From Dokdonia sp. (lineage in GTDB: Bacteria; Bacteroidota; Bacteroidia; Flavobacteriales; Flavobacteriaceae): DNA of 64,000 nucleotides. The stretch is from the NCBI GenBank assembly GCA_040118945.1, contig JBEDTH010000010.1, positions 10,731 through 74,730 on the forward strand. The letters are read 5' to 3'. Made by a program: the position numbers and the translations under genes. This document shows positions 5,859 through 61,929 of this stretch, piece after piece. Below the pieces are notes generated by a model, which saw only the letters and a list, made by a program, of their open reading frames with translations, was not told where the DNA came from and did no database searches. Every line of letters begins with the position of its first letter. Position 1 is the stretch's first letter.

Positions 5859-7100
5859 CTATTTTATTTGTCTTACTGCTTGGGTTGAAGCCTGCATTTT
5901 AGCCTTGAGTATCTTCATATCTTCGCTCACTTTTCTATCCAAAATTTTGGCGTAATGTTGCGTAGTTCTTAAAGATTTGTGGCCAAGCATTTTGCTTACA
6001 GATTCAATAGGAACACCATTTGATAGTGTTACTGTAGTTGCAAACGTATGTCTCGCCAAGTGAAAAGTTAGGTTCTTTGTTATTTTGCAAAGTATCGCTA
6101 TTTCCTTAATGTAGGCATTCATTTTTTGATTACTTAATACCGGAAGTAGTCTACCTTTATTCGAAACATCAGGATGGTCGTCATACTTCTTCAAAATATC
6201 AATAGCTGTGGGTAATAATGGAATACTGCTTCGCGTATCGGTTTTAGAACGTTTTATTTTAATCCACTTATCACCATCTATACCAATTACGATATCGTTG
6301 CGCGAAAGCTTCTTTACATCGGCATATGCAAGTCCGGTAAAACAAGAAAAGAGAAAGATATCTTTGACTTGGTCCAAACGTTCTGTATGTAATTCCTTTT
6401 CCACCATCTTTTGAATTTCTTCTTCGGTAAGAAATTCTCTCTCAACTATTTTAAGTTTAGCTTTCCAATTTGCAAATGGGTCTTTCTGAATCCAATCGTT
6501 AGCAAAAGCGATACGTATGATTTTTTTGAAATTTGTGACATACTTAATAGCTGTGTTATGCGCGCACTTTCGTTCTGTTTTTAAGTAGTATTCTAAGCCC
6601 GATATAAATTTATGGTCTACATCTTTTACTGGAATATCCTCAAGGTTATATTCTAAATTTATATAATCTGAAACGTGTTTCTTTGCTGTTTTGTAGCGCT
6701 CTATGGTTCCAGGAGCAAATTCTTTCCCTACTAAACGTTCAATCTTATCATTATGATTCTGGAAAATTTCAAGTAGCATCTTATGATGTATTCCTTTGCC
6801 TAAATAAACATTCTTAATAATTTCAGCCGTGACCAGCTCTTGATTCTCAGATAACGTTTCCTGAATCTTGTAGATTTTAACTTTAATAGTGTCCATATAC
6901 TTATTAAGCTCACGAACATCAGTTGTCGTTCCGCGAACCTTTCCAGCCTCAGAGTTCCATCTACTCAATAACACCTTTCGTTTTATGCTCAACTCGCTAC
7001 GCTTACCATTTACCGTTATTCTTAAGTAAATAGGAGCATTACCGTTTTTGTCAATGTCATTACCTCTTGGGTAAAATAGGATTGAAAATGTAGTTTTCAT
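5859..7100 (-). CDS. Tyrosine site-specific integrase (Bacteroidetes phage-integrase family with N-terminal arm-binding domain)
   Basis: C-terminal catalytic signatures HLARHTFAT and GHKSLRTTQHYAK; located next to the 3' end of a tRNA. Confidence 0.9.
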   Translation of the reverse strand: MKTTFSILFYPRGNDIDKNGNAPIYLRITVNGKRSELSIKRKVLLSRWNSEAGKVRGTTTDVRELNKYMDTIKVKIYKIQETLSENQELVTAEIIKNVYLGKGIHHKMLLEIFQNHNDKIERLVGKEFAPGTIERYKTAKKHVSDYINLEYNLEDIPVKDVDHKFISGLEYYLKTERKCAHNTAIKYVTNFKKIIRIAFANDWIQKDPFANWKAKLKIVEREFLTEEEIQKMVEKELHTERLDQVKDIFLFSCFTGLAYADVKKLSRNDIVIGIDGDKWIKIKRSKTDTRSSIPLLPTAIDILKKYDDHPDVSNKGRLLPVLSNQKMNAYIKEIAILCKITKNLTFHLARHTFATTVTLSNGVPIESVSKMLGHKSLRTTQHYAKILDRKVSEDMKILKAKMQASTQAVRQIK

Positions 7101-7338: not shown

Positions 7339-7423
7339 CGGAGAAAGAGGGATTCGAACCCCCGGAGGTGTGACCCTCAACAGTTTTCAAGACTGCCGCA
7401 TTCGACCACTCTGCCATTTCTCC
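7339..7423 (-). tRNA. tRNA-Ser (anticodon UGA)
   Basis: The reverse complement folds as a cloverleaf: acceptor GGAGAAA/TTTCTCC, anticodon loop CTTGAAA, long variable arm, T-loop GGTTCGAATCC. CCA is not encoded. Confidence 0.9.
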
Positions 7424-50213: not shown

Positions 50214-50876
50214 CTACGAAAGCAAGTTGTGCTCCATAGCAAATAAAATTGCACTTATTCTATTGTTGACACCTAGTTTTTTATACAATTCAGTTCTTCG
50301 GTTGTCTATGGTGCTGGGGCTTAAATTCATGCGTAACGCAATTTCTTTTGAATTTAAATCGGTGCCACAGATATACCTAAGAAATTCTAATTCCGAATCT
50401 TTAAAATACAAGTCTTCTTCTTCTTCTAAAGTGTCGCTGTACGTCATCTCTTTTAATCGCTTAAACGTTTGCTTATCGACACGCTCGCTGTACACATACC
50501 GGCCTTGGGCAGCAGTGGCAATAGCCTTTTCTAGCTTTTGTGGCGCCACATCTTTGAGAAGATATCCTTTGCAGCCATAACGTATCATTTGAGAAATGGT
50601 TTGGTCATCATCTTCCATAGTAATGGCCAACACATTTATTTGAGGCAAATGCTCACTTAACCATTGCATGGTGCCAATGCCATCAAGTCCTGGCATTCTT
50701 ACGTCCAATAAAACGACATCTGGCAAGCTGTTTTGCTTTTTTATGTATTCAATAAAATCTAAGCCATTCTGGGCCACATAGGTGACATAGGTATTTTCAA
50801 ATGATGCGATAAGAGTTTTTAATGCTTTCGCGAAAAGCGTATGATCATCTACCAATATGATGTTGCGGGGGGTCAT
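50214..50876 (-). CDS. LuxR/NarL-family response regulator
   Basis: Receiver domain (ILVDDH, LLDVRMPGLDG) plus a C-terminal LuxR HTH (LSPSTIDNRRTELYKKLGV). Confidence 0.9.
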   Translation of the reverse strand: MTPRNIILVDDHTLFAKALKTLIASFENTYVTYVAQNGLDFIEYIKKQNSLPDVVLLDVRMPGLDGIGTMQWLSEHLPQINVLAITMEDDDQTISQMIRYGCKGYLLKDVAPQKLEKAIATAAQGRYVYSERVDKQTFKRLKEMTYSDTLEEEEDLYFKDSELEFLRYICGTDLNSKEIALRMNLSPSTIDNRRTELYKKLGVNNRISAILFAMEHNLLS

Positions 50877-51663
50877 GGTTGAGAGGATATTTTAAATGGA
50901 TGGTTGTTCCTTGTTCTAATTTGCTGTCAAAGGTAAGCTGGGCATGTATTAAATGGGCACGGTTTTTCATGTTTATCATTCCAGAACCCTTGGCCTTTTG
51001 ATCTGGATTAAAACCAATGCCATCGTCTTTGATATAAATGTTGATCTCTTCGGGTTGATATGCTATTTGAATATCGAGCTCAGAAGCCTGAGCGTGTTTT
51101 ACAACATTGCTACAACACTCCTGAATGATTCTAAAAATGATGATTTTTTCGGTATTGGCTACAGGAAACACTTTACCCTTGGTCGAAAAATTAACCTTGA
51201 CGATACCAGCCTTGTGCAATCGTTTTACCTCTTCCTCTACCGCCTCAAACAATCGCCACTGCGCCATGACCTCCCCATTAATCACTTTAGAAAGCGAACG
51301 TATCTCGGTCAGACTTTGACCTACGGTTTCTCGAGCATCTTGAAATACTTCCTTATGTTGTGGGTCCAATTGATTGAGCCCCATATTAATTTGCATTTTG
51401 GCCACAGATAAAAGCTGACCCACATTATCATGCAATTCCATCCCAATATTCTTAAGGGTTTGTTCCTTAATTTCATGTGCCGATTGGGCAAGGGCTTTTT
51501 GAAATTCCTGTTCGCGTTTTAATTGTGTGAGCAACAGGGTATTCTTTCGCTTTTGAAAGGTGTAGAAAAAAATGACAAAAATACTTACAAGAAAAAGTAT
51601 GACGACTATAAAATAGACGCCTAAGAGAACTTGATGTTTAGAGATTTGTTGAACCAGTAACAT
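50845..51663 (-). CDS. NarX/DegS-type histidine kinase (HisKA_3 + HATPase) with a single TM and no sensor domain
   Basis: H-box ELHDNVGQLL; ATPase N/G boxes (NVVKHA, DDGIGF, GSGMINM); overlaps the RR gene by 32 nt. Confidence 0.85.
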   Translation of the reverse strand: MLLVQQISKHQVLLGVYFIVVILFLVSIFVIFFYTFQKRKNTLLLTQLKREQEFQKALAQSAHEIKEQTLKNIGMELHDNVGQLLSVAKMQINMGLNQLDPQHKEVFQDARETVGQSLTEIRSLSKVINGEVMAQWRLFEAVEEEVKRLHKAGIVKVNFSTKGKVFPVANTEKIIIFRIIQECCSNVVKHAQASELDIQIAYQPEEINIYIKDDGIGFNPDQKAKGSGMINMKNRAHLIHAQLTFDSKLEQGTTIHLKYPLNHDPPQHHIGR

Positions 51664-52358
51664 GTGAGCATTCCAAATATAAACATTCCGTAAAGGAATA
51701 TGTTTAGAAAGGTTAAGATATTGTCGTAATAAACGCCAAGAACAACTTCTTCAAATAGAAGCAAGTCGTACACCAGAAACAAAGGAGTAGCACATAAATA
51801 GTACACCAAACAGGCGATAGACACTATAAACGGAAATGACCTTTTGACCTTTAATATGCTATCTGTAGATAAAATTTCGTAGTAGTAATACGTTATTATT
51901 GCGGTAAGTAACAATACACCTATACCATCTGTAAATTTTGAAAAACTTTTAAAGAAGATGTCGGTTACAAGCAAATTGACCACAGTCGCTATCGCAAAAA
52001 TGCCAATGAATACCCCAAAGCGCTGTTTGGCTTTTTGATTGATGAGTTGCATTCTAAAATAGAATGCTAACATGATATAAGACACCACCGAATATATATT
52101 TAAAAGCCAGTCGGAATACAAAAATCCAGGATAATCACAAAAGAATTGAAAATCGTCTAAATCTTGCAAGTAGATAAAGGCAGAATATTGTCCTACCACT
52201 TCTGTAAAAACTACTACAAACAAAAACAACATAAACAGAAAAAAGTCTCGTCCCAGTACAGAACGATACTTTTTCCATGTTATAAAGGCAATGACAGCGG
52301 CAATAACATCTATTAAGATTGCTTGTGAAAAACCATCAAAATAATGTAGCCATTTCAT
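51621..52358 (-). CDS. Multi-pass (about 7 TM) membrane protein, possible detached sensor module of the kinase
   Basis: Hydrophobic segments throughout; overlaps the kinase ORF by 43 nt in another frame; abuts the upstream small ORF. Confidence 0.6.
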   Translation of the reverse strand: MKWLHYFDGFSQAILIDVIAAVIAFITWKKYRSVLGRDFFLFMLFLFVVVFTEVVGQYSAFIYLQDLDDFQFFCDYPGFLYSDWLLNIYSVVSYIMLAFYFRMQLINQKAKQRFGVFIGIFAIATVVNLLVTDIFFKSFSKFTDGIGVLLLTAIITYYYYEILSTDSILKVKRSFPFIVSIACLVYYLCATPLFLVYDLLLFEEVVLGVYYDNILTFLNIFLYGMFIFGMLTCYWFNKSLNIKFS

Positions 52359-52763
52359 CTATTGACCAGGATTGTATGCTCTTGGCGGTATACGACCAGT
52401 TTGTCTATTGGCTGGTTGAATACTATAATTATTATCTGCCCCTGGGTCTCCACTCATGGTAGGAGCCATCACTAGCGTTGCTTTGGGCTGGCTACCTTGG
52501 TTGTAGGCAGCAAAATAAATTCGAACTCCAGGATCGGATATTCCTTGGGCCGAAGACTCGGCAACCACATAGTCGAGATACGCCTGAAGATCTGCAACAC
52601 TCATATTAAATTCACAGGTATCATCATAGCCCTCGGCGGTTTTGATGTACTGCGCTCTGGTATTGGTCCATTGATCACATAAAGTTTTGCCCTCTTGAGG
52701 GGTAATACAACTGCTTGGTGGATTTGGCATAATAAAATATGTTATTGAGTTAATAAGTTTCAA
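52359..52763 (-). CDS. Small hypothetical protein, first gene of the two-component operon (alternative start 52730)
   Basis: ORF ends exactly where the 7-TM ORF starts. No signal peptide or known motif. The promoter-like box at 52768..52779 favours the Met at 52730. Confidence 0.5.
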   Translation of the reverse strand: MKLINSITYFIMPNPPSSCITPQEGKTLCDQWTNTRAQYIKTAEGYDDTCEFNMSVADLQAYLDYVVAESSAQGISDPGVRIYFAAYNQGSQPKATLVMAPTMSGDPGADNNYSIQPANRQTGRIPPRAYNPGQ

Positions 52764-52806
52764 AATATGAAATTATACTTGTATAACACCCCTCCTGATA
52801 AAAAAA

Positions 52807-52820
52807 GGGGTATTTACCCC
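52807..52820 (-). promoter_or_regulatory. Box A: GGGGTAAATACCCC (minus-strand reading), upstream of the two-component operon
   Basis: Palindromic apart from its 2 central bases; nested in the outer inverted repeat CTGATA...TATCAG (52795..52828). On the minus strand, AGTATAATTTCA lies 27 nt downstream (plus coordinates 52768..52779). Confidence 0.4.
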
Positions 52821-52847
52821 ATTATCAGTGATGTTGGTTTGAAATTA

Positions 52848-52861
52848 GGGGTATATACCCC
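52848..52861 (+). promoter_or_regulatory. Box B: GGGGTATATACCCC upstream of ORF 52907..53209
   Basis: Perfect 14-bp palindrome, followed after exactly 21 nt by AGTAATTTAGCA (52883..52894) and then the ATG at 52907. Confidence 0.4.
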
Positions 52862-52906
52862 TTTTATAGTGATCATATCTCAAGTAATTTAGCAAAAAAA
52901 GAGCCT

Positions 52907-53209
52907 ATGCCTTCCAGAAGAAATCCAGAGAGACTAGATAGCGCAAGACCCAAAGTCATGCCTTCGACACTTGCGTATAGTAAAAATGCTATCGAAAAGA
53001 TTTACGCCAAATGCAGACAAGAAGGTCTGGCCGCTTGGCATGATGGTTTGGAGTATGCCGAGTTTATCAATGCTTTATGGAACACCATGCTCAATAGTCC
53101 AGTATGTGGTGAAGAAGCTGCCAAAATCGAAGAAACCTTAGGCAGAGGTGATACCATACAGATACTTAGTGATATTTTTATTGAAGATCGCAATTCTGAA
53201 TCACGATAA
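52907..53209 (+). CDS. Hypothetical 100-aa protein, divergent from the two-component operon
   Basis: Balanced amino-acid composition; preceded by box B plus a promoter-like box. Its 3' end overlaps pxpC by 9 nt. Confidence 0.45.
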   Translation: MPSRRNPERLDSARPKVMPSTLAYSKNAIEKIYAKCRQEGLAAWHDGLEYAEFINALWNTMLNSPVCGEEAAKIEETLGRGDTIQILSDIFIEDRNSESR

Positions 53210-57972: not shown

Positions 57973-59511
57973 TCAACCCAACCACCCCTCCCTATCCAGA
58001 CTTCTATACTGGATAGCCTCGCTAATGTGCTGGTCTTTTATTTGATCCTTACCATCAAGATCGGCTATGGTTCGGGCTACTTTTAAAATTCGGTCATAGG
58101 CCCTAGCAGACAAGTGCAAGCGTTCCATCGCCGCTTTTAAGAGCTGTAATGAGCTAGCGTCGAGACTGCAATATTTTCGGATTTGCTTTACATTCATTTG
58201 TGCATTGTAGTGGGTATTTTTGCTTTCGCGAAAGCGTTCACTTTGATAGGCTCTCGCTGCTGTTACCCGTTGCCGTATAGCCAAACTAGACTCTGACTTT
58301 GTCAACTCACTCAATTTATCAAAGGGAACAGGGGTCACCTCTATGTGTATGTCAATACGATCGAGTAAGGGCCCACTAATCTTGCCCAAATACCGTTGCA
58401 TTTCTTGAGGCGAACTACTCACAGCAGCCGTCGGGTCATTAAAGTAGCCTCCAGGGCTGGGATTCATACTAGCTACCAACATAAAGCTGCTGGGATAGGT
58501 TACTGTAAATCGCGCTCTGGATATGGTAACCTCTCGATCTTCTAAGGGTTGTCGCATCACCTCGAGCACCGACCTTTTAAATTCTGGCAATTCATCGAGA
58601 AATAAAACGCCATTGTGCGACAACGATATTTCTCCTGGTTGCGGGTAAGACCCACCACCTACTAAGGCTACATCTGATATGGTGTGATGTGGTGCTCTAA
58701 AAGGGCGTTGACTCATCAATCCCTCATGCGCTTTGAGACGCCCTACCACACTGTGAATTTTTGTAGTTTCTAAGGCTTCTCTTAATGACATAGGTGGCAA
58801 TATGCTAGGCAAGCGTTTGCTAAGCATCGTCTTGCCGCTTCCAGGAGGCCCTATAAGAATGATGTTATGACCGCCGGCAGCTGCTATTTCCATACATCTT
58901 TTGATAGATTCTTGTCCTTTGACATCGGCAAAGTCAAATTCGGGCTGTTGTAGCTCTTTGTAAAACTCCTGCTGTATATCTACCGTGGTTTCTGGCAAAG
59001 GAGTGCCCTTACTAAAAAAAGCGATAACCTCACTAATCGTAGACACCCCGTATACGGCTATGCCATCTACTATGGCCGCTTCTTTTGCATTTTGTATCGG
59101 TAAGATAAATCCTTTGAAATTTTCTTCTTTCGCTTTGATCGCTATGGGTAAGGCGCCTTTTATAGGCTGAAGACTACCGTCTAATGACAACTCTCCCATG
59201 ATAATGTATGACCCAATGTCAATACCTTCGATCTGGCCTGAAGCAATAAGGATACCTAACGCCAGTGGCAAGTCATAGGCCGATCCTTCTTTACGCATAT
59301 CGGCAGGTGACATATTGAGAATGATCTTTTTGCCTGGAATTTTAAATCCGTGATTTTGTAAAGCCGCTGCAATTCTGAAATTACTTTCTTTGATGGCACT
59401 ATCGGGTAAGCCTACCAGATGATAGCCTATTCCTTTATCTACATTAACCTCTACGGTAATTGTGGTGGCGTCTACTCCAATGACAGCGCTTCCAAAAACT
59501 TTGGTAATCAT
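57973..59511 (-). CDS. YifB/ComM-family Mg-chelatase-like AAA+ ATPase
   Basis: Lon-protease-like N-domain, Walker A GPPGSGKTM, Walker B VLFLDELPEF, and a C-terminal ChlI-like region. Confidence 0.9.
   Translation of the reverse strand: MITKVFGSAVIGVDATTITVEVNVDKGIGYHLVGLPDSAIKESNFRIAAALQNHGFKIPGKKIILNMSPADMRKEGSAYDLPLALGILIASGQIEGIDIGSYIIMGELSLDGSLQPIKGALPIAIKAKEENFKGFILPIQNAKEAAIVDGIAVYGVSTISEVIAFFSKGTPLPETTVDIQQEFYKELQQPEFDFADVKGQESIKRCMEIAAAGGHNIILIGPPGSGKTMLSKRLPSILPPMSLREALETTKIHSVVGRLKAHEGLMSQRPFRAPHHTISDVALVGGGSYPQPGEISLSHNGVLFLDELPEFKRSVLEVMRQPLEDREVTISRARFTVTYPSSFMLVASMNPSPGGYFNDPTAAVSSSPQEMQRYLGKISGPLLDRIDIHIEVTPVPFDKLSELTKSESSLAIRQRVTAARAYQSERFRESKNTHYNAQMNVKQIRKYCSLDASSLQLLKAAMERLHLSARAYDRILKVARTIADLDGKDQIKDQHISEAIQYRSLDREGWLG
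58222..58235. repeat. Iterated palindrome GCTTTCGCGAAAGC (perfect 14-mer)
   Basis: Inside the minus-strand yifB/comM-like gene in the third frame, read as RFRES. Confidence 0.95.
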
Positions 59512-59677
59512 GGTGTTGTTTTGAGAAGTAATGTAGAAAGAAAGCAGACAGCCTCATCCTACTAAATCCGAACATATATGAATCTTCGGAAACGGTTGTA
59601 AAACGAGACAGTTAACTGCATAACTCGGACAATGTCATCCAAATTGATTCAATTTGAGGAATTTATTACGTAAAAAA

Positions 59678-59691
59678 GGGGTAAATACCCC
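59678..59691 (+). promoter_or_regulatory. Box C: GGGGTAAATACCCC upstream of sRNA candidate 1
   Basis: The 14-mer is identical to box A as read in its transcription direction. It is followed after exactly 21 nt by AGTATATTTACA (59713..59724). Confidence 0.4.
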
Positions 59692-59729
59692 TTTTAAAAA
59701 TTTGAGATGACCAGTATATTTACAATGTA

Positions 59730-59869
59730 ATAAAACAACAATTGTTTAGGTTAGTTTACAAGGAAAACAAAAGCTTCGTTTGAATTCGTGAGTGTTAGAT
59801 AACGAAGTCAAATTTTCAAGAATTTAGGGGTGAAAGGCATCCCGCGTTATGCGGGGTGTTTTTCTTTTT
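59730..59869 (+). ncRNA. Candidate small RNA 1 (5' end estimated)
   Basis: Plus-strand promoter-like box AGTATATTTACAA at 59713, internal hairpin CTTCGTT...AACGAAG, terminator hairpin 59838..59858 plus a T-run. No ORF. Both flanking genes are on the minus strand. Confidence 0.4.
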
Positions 59870-59956
59870 TACACCCATATCTACCGTAATCATCCGATAG
59901 AAATTCTATATAATGCCTTAGTCTTTACAGAAATAACAAGTATATTTACAACGCCT

Positions 59957-60046
59957 TATTCAAGAGGCTTATGGGCAGCCTTAGGGTTGCTTTCATAAAT
60001 TTAGGGGTGAAAGGCATCCCGCATTATGCGGGATGTTTTTCTTTTT
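59957..60046 (+). ncRNA. Candidate small RNA 2, paralog of candidate 1 (5' end estimated)
   Basis: Identical AGTATATTTACAA box at 59939. Its 49-nt 3' module (59998..60046) is 47/49 identical to 59821..59869, including terminator hairpin 60015..60035 plus a T-run. Confidence 0.4.
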
Positions 60047-60060
60047 ATTCCCTTATCAAA

Positions 60061-61929
60061 CTACTCTTCCAATATACCTACCACTATTTCTGATTGGTGG
60101 TACACCTTGTGGGTTTGTTTTTTAAAATCGCTCTCCTTGGCCTTAAATATATTATCTACATAGGTTTGAGGATTTAAATCAATTAAAGGAAACCATGTGC
60201 TTTGAACTTGTATCATAAGTTTATGGCCTTTCTTTATGGTGTGTAAAACATCCTGAAGTTTGATAGTCACCGTTTCTATTTTACCCGGGGTAAATGGTTC
60301 TGGGTTCTCCATGCTATTTCTAAAGCGGCCACGCATCACCTCACTACGCACCATTTGCTGATAGCCAGCCATTGTGACTCCCTCTTCGGTTTCTTGAGTG
60401 TTTTTTGCAGTATCTGGGTACACATCGATCACTTTTACAATCCAATCTGCAGCAGTACCTGTGGTTTCCACAAATAATTTGGCCGTAATATCTCCCGCTA
60501 AAGTTAGGTCTTCGTCCATAACTGGGGTTTCATAAACCAACACATCTGGACGGGCTCCTGCAAAACGCTGATCGTCACTCATGTACTTACGCGGAGTAAA
60601 CACCATTTTTTTACCTTCGGCATAGGGTACAGGATTGGCTGGGTCACTTACAAAACTGCGTGCCTCTTCAGATTTTGTTGGCGTAAAATTTAATTGTCCA
60701 TCTCGATCAAGATAATAAGGTGTGCGGTTAACATTTTTGGGAGGCCAGCTTTCAAAGCTGCGCCACTCTTTTGTACCTGAATCAAAGACATGTGCTTCGG
60801 GAAGTCCCGTCTGCCCATCGGCAGGACCTTTGAGCCAATGGTTAAAGAATTTGGTCTCTATTTCCTTTTGGAAATAGTCTGAGATATCATCACCAAAATA
60901 CACATTACCTACAGCCTGACGTTTTTTGGTTCTTGCCCAATCCCCATGACTCCAAGGGCCAAAAACTACCGTATTATAGGTATCACTGCGCTTCTCAATA
61001 TTCTTATAGGTCTCCCAAGGACCGTAAAGATCTTCGGCATCGTACAAACCACCCACAGTCATTACAGCCGGCTTTATGTTTTCTAAATGCTGTATCAAAC
61101 CTCTAGATTGCCAGAATTCATCATAATTAGGGTGCTCCTTGAGCTGTGTCCAAAATTCATTAGAAGCGTCGTAGTATTGATCAAGATTAGACAAAGGACC
61201 TGTCTTGAGGAAAAAATCAAACTGATCGTCGCTATTTAACTCAGGAAAAGAGTACCAGGCTTCTTTTGTAGGCCCCTCTTTTTGGTATCCAAAAACCGCA
61301 GTTGCCCTCCAATAACTCAATAAATAAGCTCCGTTATGGTGAAAATCGTCAAAAAAGAAATCGCCAATACACGCCTGTGGTGAGGCTGCTTTCAATGCAG
61401 GATGCCCGCTTAATAGCGAATAGGTCGCATAAAATCCAGGATAAGAGATACCCCAAGTCCCTACATTGCCATTAAAGTTGTCTACATTATTGACCAGCCA
61501 TTCTATGGTGTCATAGGTGTCACTGGCCTCGTCAACCTCTCCCTCCTTTTTGTTTGGGATAAAGGCACGCATATTATCGTAAGAGCCCTCGCTCATCCAT
61601 CGGCCTCTCACATCCTGATAAACAATGATATTTCCTTCTTTCATCAAATAGGAATTAGGCCCTATTCTCGATCTAAATTTGTCTTCGCCATAAGGTCTAC
61701 AACTATATGGCGTTCGCATCATAAGAATAGGGTATGTGGTCGAGGTATCCTTAGGCGAATATATGGTTGTGTGTAATTTGATACCATCTCGCATTGGTAT
61801 GCTCACTTCCTGTTTGTTGTAATACTGCGCAACATCATAGTCTTGTTGCTGTGCCTTGACCCCAGTTGTGGCCGTGGGTAGAAAACTCCATCCAATGAGA
61901 AAGAGTACGATTAGGATTGTTTTTTTCAT
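60061..61929 (-). CDS. CocE/NonD-family (S15, Xaa-Pro dipeptidyl-peptidase-like) serine hydrolase
   Basis: Signal peptide after the internal Met (61929), nucleophile motif GISYPG, and a family-typical C-terminal beta-sandwich. Confidence 0.8.
   Translation of the reverse strand: MKKTILIVLFLIGWSFLPTATTGVKAQQQDYDVAQYYNKQEVSIPMRDGIKLHTTIYSPKDTSTTYPILMMRTPYSCRPYGEDKFRSRIGPNSYLMKEGNIIVYQDVRGRWMSEGSYDNMRAFIPNKKEGEVDEASDTYDTIEWLVNNVDNFNGNVGTWGISYPGFYATYSLLSGHPALKAASPQACIGDFFFDDFHHNGAYLLSYWRATAVFGYQKEGPTKEAWYSFPELNSDDQFDFFLKTGPLSNLDQYYDASNEFWTQLKEHPNYDEFWQSRGLIQHLENIKPAVMTVGGLYDAEDLYGPWETYKNIEKRSDTYNTVVFGPWSHGDWARTKKRQAVGNVYFGDDISDYFQKEIETKFFNHWLKGPADGQTGLPEAHVFDSGTKEWRSFESWPPKNVNRTPYYLDRDGQLNFTPTKSEEARSFVSDPANPVPYAEGKKMVFTPRKYMSDDQRFAGARPDVLVYETPVMDEDLTLAGDITAKLFVETTGTAADWIVKVIDVYPDTAKNTQETEEGVTMAGYQQMVRSEVMRGRFRNSMENPEPFTPGKIETVTIKLQDVLHTIKKGHKLMIQVQSTWFPLIDLNPQTYVDNIFKAKESDFKKQTHKVYHQSEIVVGILEE

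Follow-up and report, generated by a model that had tools for sequence, protein, structure and literature searches.

The sequence analysed here, a 64,000-nt stretch of a Dokdonia sp. assembly (GCA_040118945.1, contig JBEDTH010000010.1, positions 10,731 to 74,730) that we refer to as the window, contains two adjacent plus-strand units with the appearance of small RNA (sRNA) genes. They occupy a 549-bp gap (59512-60060) between two minus-strand genes, namely yifB (57973-59511), which encodes a Mg-chelatase-like AAA ATPase, and a gene for a CocE/NonD S15-family hydrolase (60061-61929), hereafter the peptidase gene. An earlier reading of the same DNA, here called the original prediction, had placed the gap between two minus-strand genes and had seen two plus-strand terminators within it. 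Gene calls agree on the strand of both neighbours and on the length of the gap, and both hairpins with their T-tracts were called as plus-strand terminators. The parts of its interpretation, a duplicated pair of trans-acting sRNAs, that lend themselves to sequence analysis were all supported.

All features of the two units lie on the plus strand. Unit 1 begins with a promoter box at 59713..59725, whose -7 element TATATTTA occupies 59715-59722; in unit 2 the box is at 59939..59951 and the same element, TATATTTA, at 59941-59948. The sigma-A -7 box of Flavobacterium psychrophilum, TAnnTTTG, spans -12 to -5 (PMC9723704), and the transcription starts were therefore placed at G59727 and G59953. With its 3' end taken from the T-tract, the predicted unit 1 sRNA is ~143 nt long (59727..59870). 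It carries a conserved UUGUUUAGGUUAGUUU (59743-59758), a central hairpin whose tip reads GAGUGUU (59774-59807; this is the CTTCGTT...AACGAAG hairpin recognised by the original prediction), the G-rich motif AAUUUAGGGGU (59821..59831), predicted to be single-stranded and a candidate seed or binding site, and an intrinsic terminator with a 15-bp stem (59832..59864) followed by a T-tract to 59870. The predicted unit 2 sRNA is ~94 nt long (59953..60046) and starts on the first base of hairpin H1 (59953-59968), which is followed by hairpin H2 (59969-59998, loop CUUAGGGU), the linker AUUUAGGGGU (59999-60008) and a terminator (60009-60041) with its U-tail. Both predicted RNAs fold more stably than shuffled sequences, with minimum free energies of -38.2 kcal/mol (z = -4.26) for unit 1 and -42.9 kcal/mol (z = -6.38) for unit 2.

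The view that the units are duplicated paralogues with a shared 3' module is supported by sequence comparison. The identical 13-nt box that had been reported, AGTATATTTACAA, occurs in the 64 kb at 59713 and 59939 only, even with one mismatch allowed (0.21 expected), and a 25-nt module probe likewise found just these two copies in the window (0 expected). As stated in the original prediction, only two positions distinguish the 3' modules (59821-59869 and 59998-60046), and at both, which lie in the stem, pairing is preserved: the stem of unit 2 is Watson-Crick throughout, and U·G and G·U stand at these positions in unit 1. The direct repeat extends beyond the 49-nt module to 56 nt with 93% identity (59814-59869 vs 59991-60046). 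Some details of the anatomy had to be revised, however. The terminator stem had been given as 9 bp, but it is 15 bp long because GAAAGGCA pairs with UGUUUUUC. Of the segment described as single-stranded, only about AAUUUAGGGGU is therefore predicted to be unpaired, and half of the proposed seed (GAAAGG) would form part of the terminator stem. Lastly, the box had been placed 100-150 nt before the hairpin, but this distance is 76 nt in unit 2.

Relatives of the pair were sought by scanning one genome for each of 185,579 species with the pattern TTTAGGGGTGAAARR-N19-23-TTTTTC. Of the 61 loci returned, 36 are family members, each from a different genome, and belong to Dokdonia, Leeuwenhoekiella, Flavimarina and further Flavobacteriaceae; a marine metagenome scan added 16 loci. 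The other 25 were rejected as chance matches or a Lachnospiraceae repeat, all of them lacking GAAAGGCA plus the hairpin, and the five chance matches that were scored (three flavobacterial, two from other Bacteroidota) reached at most 29 bits. The Lachnospiraceae repeat consists of ~120 identical nucleotides containing TTTAGGGGTGAAAAATGG in mouse-gut genomes (L009, L011, L029, L036, L040, L044, L045 with two copies, L046 and L049); some genomes have it more than once, and it probably represents a mobile element with no relation to the sRNAs.

The family stands clearly apart in a covariance model of the module: 94 members score 57-77 bits, the next match, at 31 bits, is a true copy cut by the edge of its locus, and all others fall below 30. 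Applied to the window, the model detects no third copy. Of the 48 distinct loci, 39 have a pair of copies 99-205 nt apart, and there is one locus per genome in the 36 species-representative genomes, which include two complete chromosomes. Searching for the module elsewhere thus answered a doubt already raised in the original prediction: with one locus per genome and two copies in the window, the family is neither a dispersed repeat nor a generic terminator. The original prediction had been unable to place the units in a known RNA family, and Rfam 15 (including Flavo-1, 6S-Flavo and the Bacteroides sRNAs) gave no family at gathering threshold in the gap. The only match at that level in the window is a tRNA at 7339-7423, and the best permissive matches in the gap (JA04, 29.8 bits against a threshold of 81; PyrR, 24.6 bits against 54) all rest on the terminator. 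A literature search for sRNAs of Dokdonia or Flavobacteriia found no description of this family. On the basis of these comparisons we regard it as a real, conserved family of predicted sRNAs that is not in Rfam or the literature searched and is limited to marine flavobacteria of the Dokdonia/Leeuwenhoekiella type.

The shared module was examined in an alignment of 57 distinct sequences. Every copy has the same layout, UUUAGGGGU or a near variant followed by a terminator whose invariant base is formed by GAAAGGCA and UGUUUUUC. In 51 copies UUUAGGGGU has no change; the variants carry one to three substitutions (e.g., AUAGGGGGU and UUUAGGGAU) and are confined to a minority of second copies. In predicted folds the linker of unit 2 copies is unpaired with a probability of 0.5-0.9, so that the motif appears both conserved and accessible. 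A second copy of it lies in the apical loop of Leeuwenhoekiella unit 1 and, less strictly, in that of unit 2 in the window.

Across the 15 pairs of the terminator stem, 96.5% of alignment cells are standard pairs, a share that drops to 54-64% once the partner columns are displaced by 1-3 positions. Covariation, proposed as a check in the original prediction, was found in the five upper pairs, where double compensatory changes occur in 94 cells compared with 35 ± 8 in shuffled alignments, a value reached in none of 500 shuffles. The lower eight pairs, by comparison, never vary on both sides. Terminator loops range from 3 to 9 nt. Four stem positions retain G·U pairs, two of them in the lower stem (55 and 53 of the 57 copies) and two in the upper (29 and 20); as these would be A·C mismatches on the opposite strand, the RNA is assigned to the plus strand. 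A departure from the usual layout was seen in the Dokdonia pacifica-type loci L032, L050, L052 and L067, in which the unit 1 terminator has no U-tail after UUUUUC and unit 2 has the motif variant AUAGGGGGUGAAAGGCA and no recognisable -7 box. Both modules may be transcribed there as one RNA of ~260 nt.

The 5' parts of the two units had been described as unrelated while the 3' module is shared, and the same pattern holds among the relatives. Dokdonia-type unit 1 is 125-142 nt long (~140 nt in most loci), with a conserved UUGUUUAGGUUAG and the GAGUGUU hairpin tip, and Leeuwenhoekiella unit 1 is 116-121 nt long, with the second motif copy in its apical loop reading (U)UUAGGGG(U). All 11 distinct 5' domains of Dokdonia-type unit 2, which have a median identity of 62%, fold into H1 and H2 with z-scores of -2.0 to -6.6 (mean -3.9), and the hairpins are kept through compensatory changes. 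This folding leaves AUAAAUUUAGGGGU unpaired. These values come from per-sequence folding against shuffles, which replaced RNAalifold; the latter, run on a MAFFT alignment of unit 2, recovered nothing but the terminator, as the hairpins were misaligned there. Leeuwenhoekiella unit 2 is a minimal RNA of 57 nt, a short single-stranded leader and then the terminator. Judged across the family, the universal parts are thus the predicted promoter, the G-rich motif and the terminator only.

The box had been likened to a -7 element, and among relatives it is indeed of the sigma-A type, TAnnTTTA/G, at a fixed position. It is aligned in all unit 1 copies, reading TAnnTTTA in 47 of 48 loci and TACTTTAG in the remaining one. 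For unit 2, TATATTTA or TATATTTG is present in 13 of 15 Dokdonia-type copies, the canonical TATATTTG being the form found in Dokdonia, and a TAnATTTA box precedes Leeuwenhoekiella unit 2 in the four loci examined.

Directly upstream of the unit 1 promoter lies a palindrome, AAAAGGGGTAAATACCCCTTTT (59674..59695), which can fold as a hairpin on both strands. A GGGG-N-CCCC palindrome always precedes unit 1 in the family, and in 46 of the 48 distinct loci, across genera, the distance from its last C to the TA of the -7 box is exactly 23 nt; the spacer is fixed in length and not conserved in sequence. The GGGG-N6-CCCC core would accordingly sit at about -49 to -36, centred near -42.5. The palindrome looks like a candidate regulator-binding site and could serve as a bidirectional terminator too, but the fixed spacing favours a promoter-coupled regulatory site over a mere terminator. 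No such palindrome stands upstream of the unit 2 promoter in the window. The loci L004/L005 and L006, which encode the same YifB protein, differ by a 52-bp duplication upstream of unit 1, so that the GGGGTATTTACCCC palindrome is present twice in L004/L005 and once in L006.

The genomic setting is conserved as well. An identical copy of the locus exists in two other assemblies, and YifB of the window is 95% identical to that of an uncultured Flavobacteriaceae metagenome-assembled genome, 85% to that of a second uncultured group and 83-84% to that of Dokdonia. At all three levels the syntenic gap between the peptidase gene and yifB contains both units on the strand opposite to the flanking genes, with the G-rich segment and the stem base unchanged or nearly so and compensatory changes in the upper stem. 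The pair lies between the peptidase gene and yifB throughout the Dokdonia-type clade and 1-5 kb from both in Leeuwenhoekiella. In the window and the Dokdonia-type loci the downstream gene is convergent to the units, and no plus-strand gene that could be regulated in cis lies 3' of them. A segment in the yifB leader that resembles the G-rich motif was dropped from consideration, as it is not conserved in the relative with 95% identity.

The reading that we favour, with a probability of roughly 60%, is that the locus encodes two paralogous plus-strand non-coding sRNAs that act in trans through the G-rich motif, most likely by base-pairing. Comparison among relatives shows each unit to have its own predicted sigma-A-type promoter, with a -7 box TAnnTTTA/G, and its own Rho-independent terminator. 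We infer that both units are transcribed and that the RNAs act in trans, the G-rich segment being the putative base-pairing seed. Unit 1 would be driven by a composite promoter under a dedicated regulator bound at the palindrome, and unit 2 by a plain promoter, and the presence of two copies may allow differential regulation or dosage. The motif would form the working surface of the RNA, exposed in the predicted single-stranded linker 5' of the terminator base, and could pair with C/U-rich sites (CCCCUAAA) near the translation starts of mRNAs, as Bacteroides GibS and FopS do.

Several points weigh against this proposal. No target was found, and the window has no motif-complementary site beyond chance: sites complementary to CCUUUCACCCCUAAA turned out to be only the antisense of the sRNA genes themselves, and TAGGGGTGA-like words occur at chance level. 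The only target candidate is CCCCUAAAU(U), a match of 9-10 nt (L004:6811-6832 and L059:5093-5114), close to the length expected by chance, and ~10 nt beyond its end comes the start codon of an Hpt-like gene. This gene encodes 120 aa, precedes a hybrid sensor kinase and lies ~2.3 kb from yifB in L004 and L059; it was not found in the window. A G-rich seed would also be unusual because translation start regions in Bacteroidota are A/U-rich. Finally, the module contains at least 17 invariant nucleotides, half of them in a stem that never covaries, which exceeds the needs of a base-pairing seed; a stem base this constant suggests that the RNA may be read by a protein or by some other partner specific for its sequence.

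An alternative of this kind, which we consider unlikely, is that the RNAs titrate a protein or other factor, either with UAGGGGUGAAAGGC mimicking helix 35a (H35a) of 23S rRNA, the site of uL2 and YsxC/EngB, or with UAGGGG being read by an RRM-type protein. UAGGGGUGAAAGGC, found at 59825..59838 in unit 1 and at 60002..60015 in unit 2, is identical over 14 nt to the 23S rRNA of Flavobacterium limnophilum, Chryseobacterium fluminis and Persicobacter, a match shared with the 23S rRNA of Flavobacteriia and Cytophagia. The Rfam large subunit (LSU) model places this stretch at the end of the helix closing H34/H35 and in the H35a mini-hairpin, and just 14 of 50,000 shuffled cores reach a 14-nt match to the rRNA operon. 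H35a is a nearly universal GAAA(G) Z-turn (uGAAA(G)g) contacted by uL2 and YsxC (PMC6125677, PMC12560758). Titration would also suit the invariance of the lower terminator stem in 57 copies while the upper stem covaries, and the presence of two or three displayed motif copies at each locus, in apical loops as well as linkers, as in protein-sponge RNAs. However, the 23S identity was spotted post hoc, and about three 14-mer matches to the rRNA operon are expected in any 64-kb window. GAAAGGCA is predicted to pair with the U-tract in the terminator stem of the sRNA, and not to form the H35a mini-hairpin; the flanks of the match differ, the closing C of H35a is A in the sRNA, second motif copies keep UAGGGG(U/A)A only and not the H35a part, and no ribosomal or assembly gene lies nearby. 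The more specific proposal that UAGGGGUGAAAGGC is a copy of H35a and that the sRNAs are trans-acting rRNA mimics titrating a 50S-assembly factor (uL2 or an EngB/YsxC-type GTPase), under control of the palindrome regulator, we find improbable. If true, a ribosome component would have a decoy in the form of a separate sRNA and not of a cis-acting leader. A functional link behind the 23S identity is best treated as a lead with long odds. It is very improbable that AGGGGUGA acts instead as a Shine-Dalgarno mimic pairing with the 16S anti-Shine-Dalgarno sequence. GGGGUG and the 3' end of Bacteroidota 16S rRNA, ACACCUCCUUUCU, can form a duplex of six pairs that includes one G·U, but no more than six, and the best duplex with the Flavobacterium rRNA-operon locus (-14.5 kcal/mol, with the 16S 3' end not located there) does not surpass those of shuffled seeds (mean -15.4 ± 1.6 kcal/mol). 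Moreover, the anti-Shine-Dalgarno sequence is sequestered in Bacteroidota ribosomes.

Two further explanations dispense with a functional RNA or with its non-coding nature. The elements might be transcription insulators only, separating the peptidase gene from yifB, with spurious promoter-like boxes. The position between two same-strand genes would suit this role, as would the window's peptidase gene having no terminator of its own and the upstream palindrome being a good minus-strand terminator, but the two terminators are oriented wrongly for the flanking genes and their G·U pairs are incompatible with a minus-strand RNA. In several relatives the peptidase gene is equipped with a separate bidirectional terminator, so it is not the gene that the units serve. 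The distance of 1-5 kb from both genes in Leeuwenhoekiella and the conservation of the non-terminator parts (the motif, H1/H2 and the -7 boxes) argue further against insulation, which we rate as scarcely credible. The other explanation, that the 49-nt module is a dispersed repeat or generic terminator or that the units encode small proteins, draws on a 40-aa frame with an ATG start that runs through unit 2 (59971-60093) in the window and in the relative with 95% YifB identity (L003). The distribution of one locus per genome speaks against a repeat, and the start codon of the frame is missing in L004 and in Dokdonia. The original prediction had seen no credible open reading frame and had named a conserved small one as evidence that would count against it; such a frame was looked for in the homologues and not found. 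Loops that vary between 3 and 9 nt put any frame out of register, the two 5' parts bear no relation to each other, and unit 2 of Leeuwenhoekiella measures only 57 nt. The chance that this explanation is correct is close to nil, and it is refuted as far as sequence data allow.

Among known RNAs, the closest layout overall to the proposed sRNA pair is that of tandem paralogous sRNAs such as OmrA/B and PrrF1/2. OmrA/OmrB of Enterobacteria, PrrF1/PrrF2 of Pseudomonas and AbcR1/AbcR2 of Rhizobiales are, like the pair in the window, adjacent genes on the same strand with their own promoters and intrinsic terminators, and their near-identical segments, the terminator region among them, stand beside sequence that has diverged. 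In these pairs one copy or both have a regulator-dependent promoter, as would be the case for unit 1. They share no sequence similarity with the present family, however, in which the shared motif is G-rich and lies at the 3' side, next to the terminator. To our knowledge the host phylum lacks Hfq, and the marine Flavobacteriia also lack ProQ and CsrA.

Within the phylum, the closest layout is that of GibS and FopS of Bacteroides thetaiotaomicron, which have a shared single-stranded seed and terminator and repress translation (PMC11697453). Like the present family they are multicopy paralogues of ~55-145 nt with sigma-A-type TAnnTTTG promoters, and the FopS layout of single strand plus terminator is exactly matched by the 57-nt unit 2 of Leeuwenhoekiella. 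The FopS seed, in contrast, is 5'-terminal and A/U-rich, and the FopS family has 14 dispersed copies, whereas here the copies are two and in tandem, the motif is G-rich, the base of the terminator does not vary and no Rfam family matches. LhrC1-5 of Listeria and RsaE/RoxS of Firmicutes resemble it in repeating a short motif in an apical loop and a pre-terminator linker, and the LhrC genes are also in tandem. They use C-rich motifs (UCCC) to pair with ribosome-binding sites that are G-rich, whereas the present motif is G-rich (UAGGGG), so that any target must be C-rich. The LhrC Rfam model reached only 19 bits in the gap, on the opposite strand.

Marine Flavobacteriia play a large part in degrading algal organic matter, and almost nothing is known of how they use RNA for regulation. 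The family described here is well defined, with a diagnostic covariance model, predicted transcript ends, a near-invariant motif and a promoter element that links it to a second gene, and its cultured carriers include Leeuwenhoekiella blandensis MED217 and several Dokdonia isolates. Leads that go beyond a routine new sRNA are the palindrome's fixed position and the 14-nt identity to 23S rRNA.

The second gene encodes a conserved protein of 101 aa (52907-53209, plus strand). Two more AGGGGTAnnTACCCC palindromes occur in the window (52806-52821 and 52847-52862, 41 bp apart), both between this gene and a divergent operon. The second belongs to a palindrome-plus-box site upstream of the gene, 6.8 kb from the sRNA locus, which consists of GGGGTATATACCCC, 23 nt and then TAATTTAG (52848..52892, plus strand). 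Orthologues of the 101-aa gene are preceded by a palindrome and box in five loci (L089-L092 and L078), down to 46% protein identity and with a variable spacer, and the arrangement is absent from 50 shuffled windows. Its occurrence at both unit 1 and the 101-aa gene suggests shared regulation. The protein has no sequence match in Pfam, NCBIfam or PDB, and its AlphaFold model (four helices, pLDDT 76) gave no significant Foldseek match; the idea that it is a ribbon-helix-helix regulator of the palindrome was unsupported by the sequence searches and Foldseek. The divergent operon (50214-52733) comprises genes for a 124-aa protein, a 245-aa membrane protein, a HisKA_3 kinase and a GerE-type response regulator. 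The latter, a tentative candidate for the palindrome-binding protein, adjoins the palindrome-plus-box site only in the clade of the window and is not adjacent in the Dokdonia-type contig L078.

Rearrangements were also observed around yifB itself. Between the sRNA pair and yifB, Dokdonia sp. Asnod2-E02 has an HNH endonuclease gene inserted together with duplicated yifB fragments that show 65-89% identity to YifB of the window (L007:1173-3000, the same place as L047); this looks like a mobile insertion with target duplication. L004 and L005 contain a YifB-homologous fragment of 87 aa with 71-72% identity (6369-6629), ~1.8 kb downstream of the intact yifB. It has the look of a gene remnant, and is called in L005 as a 74-aa reading frame with a Mg_chelatase_C domain.

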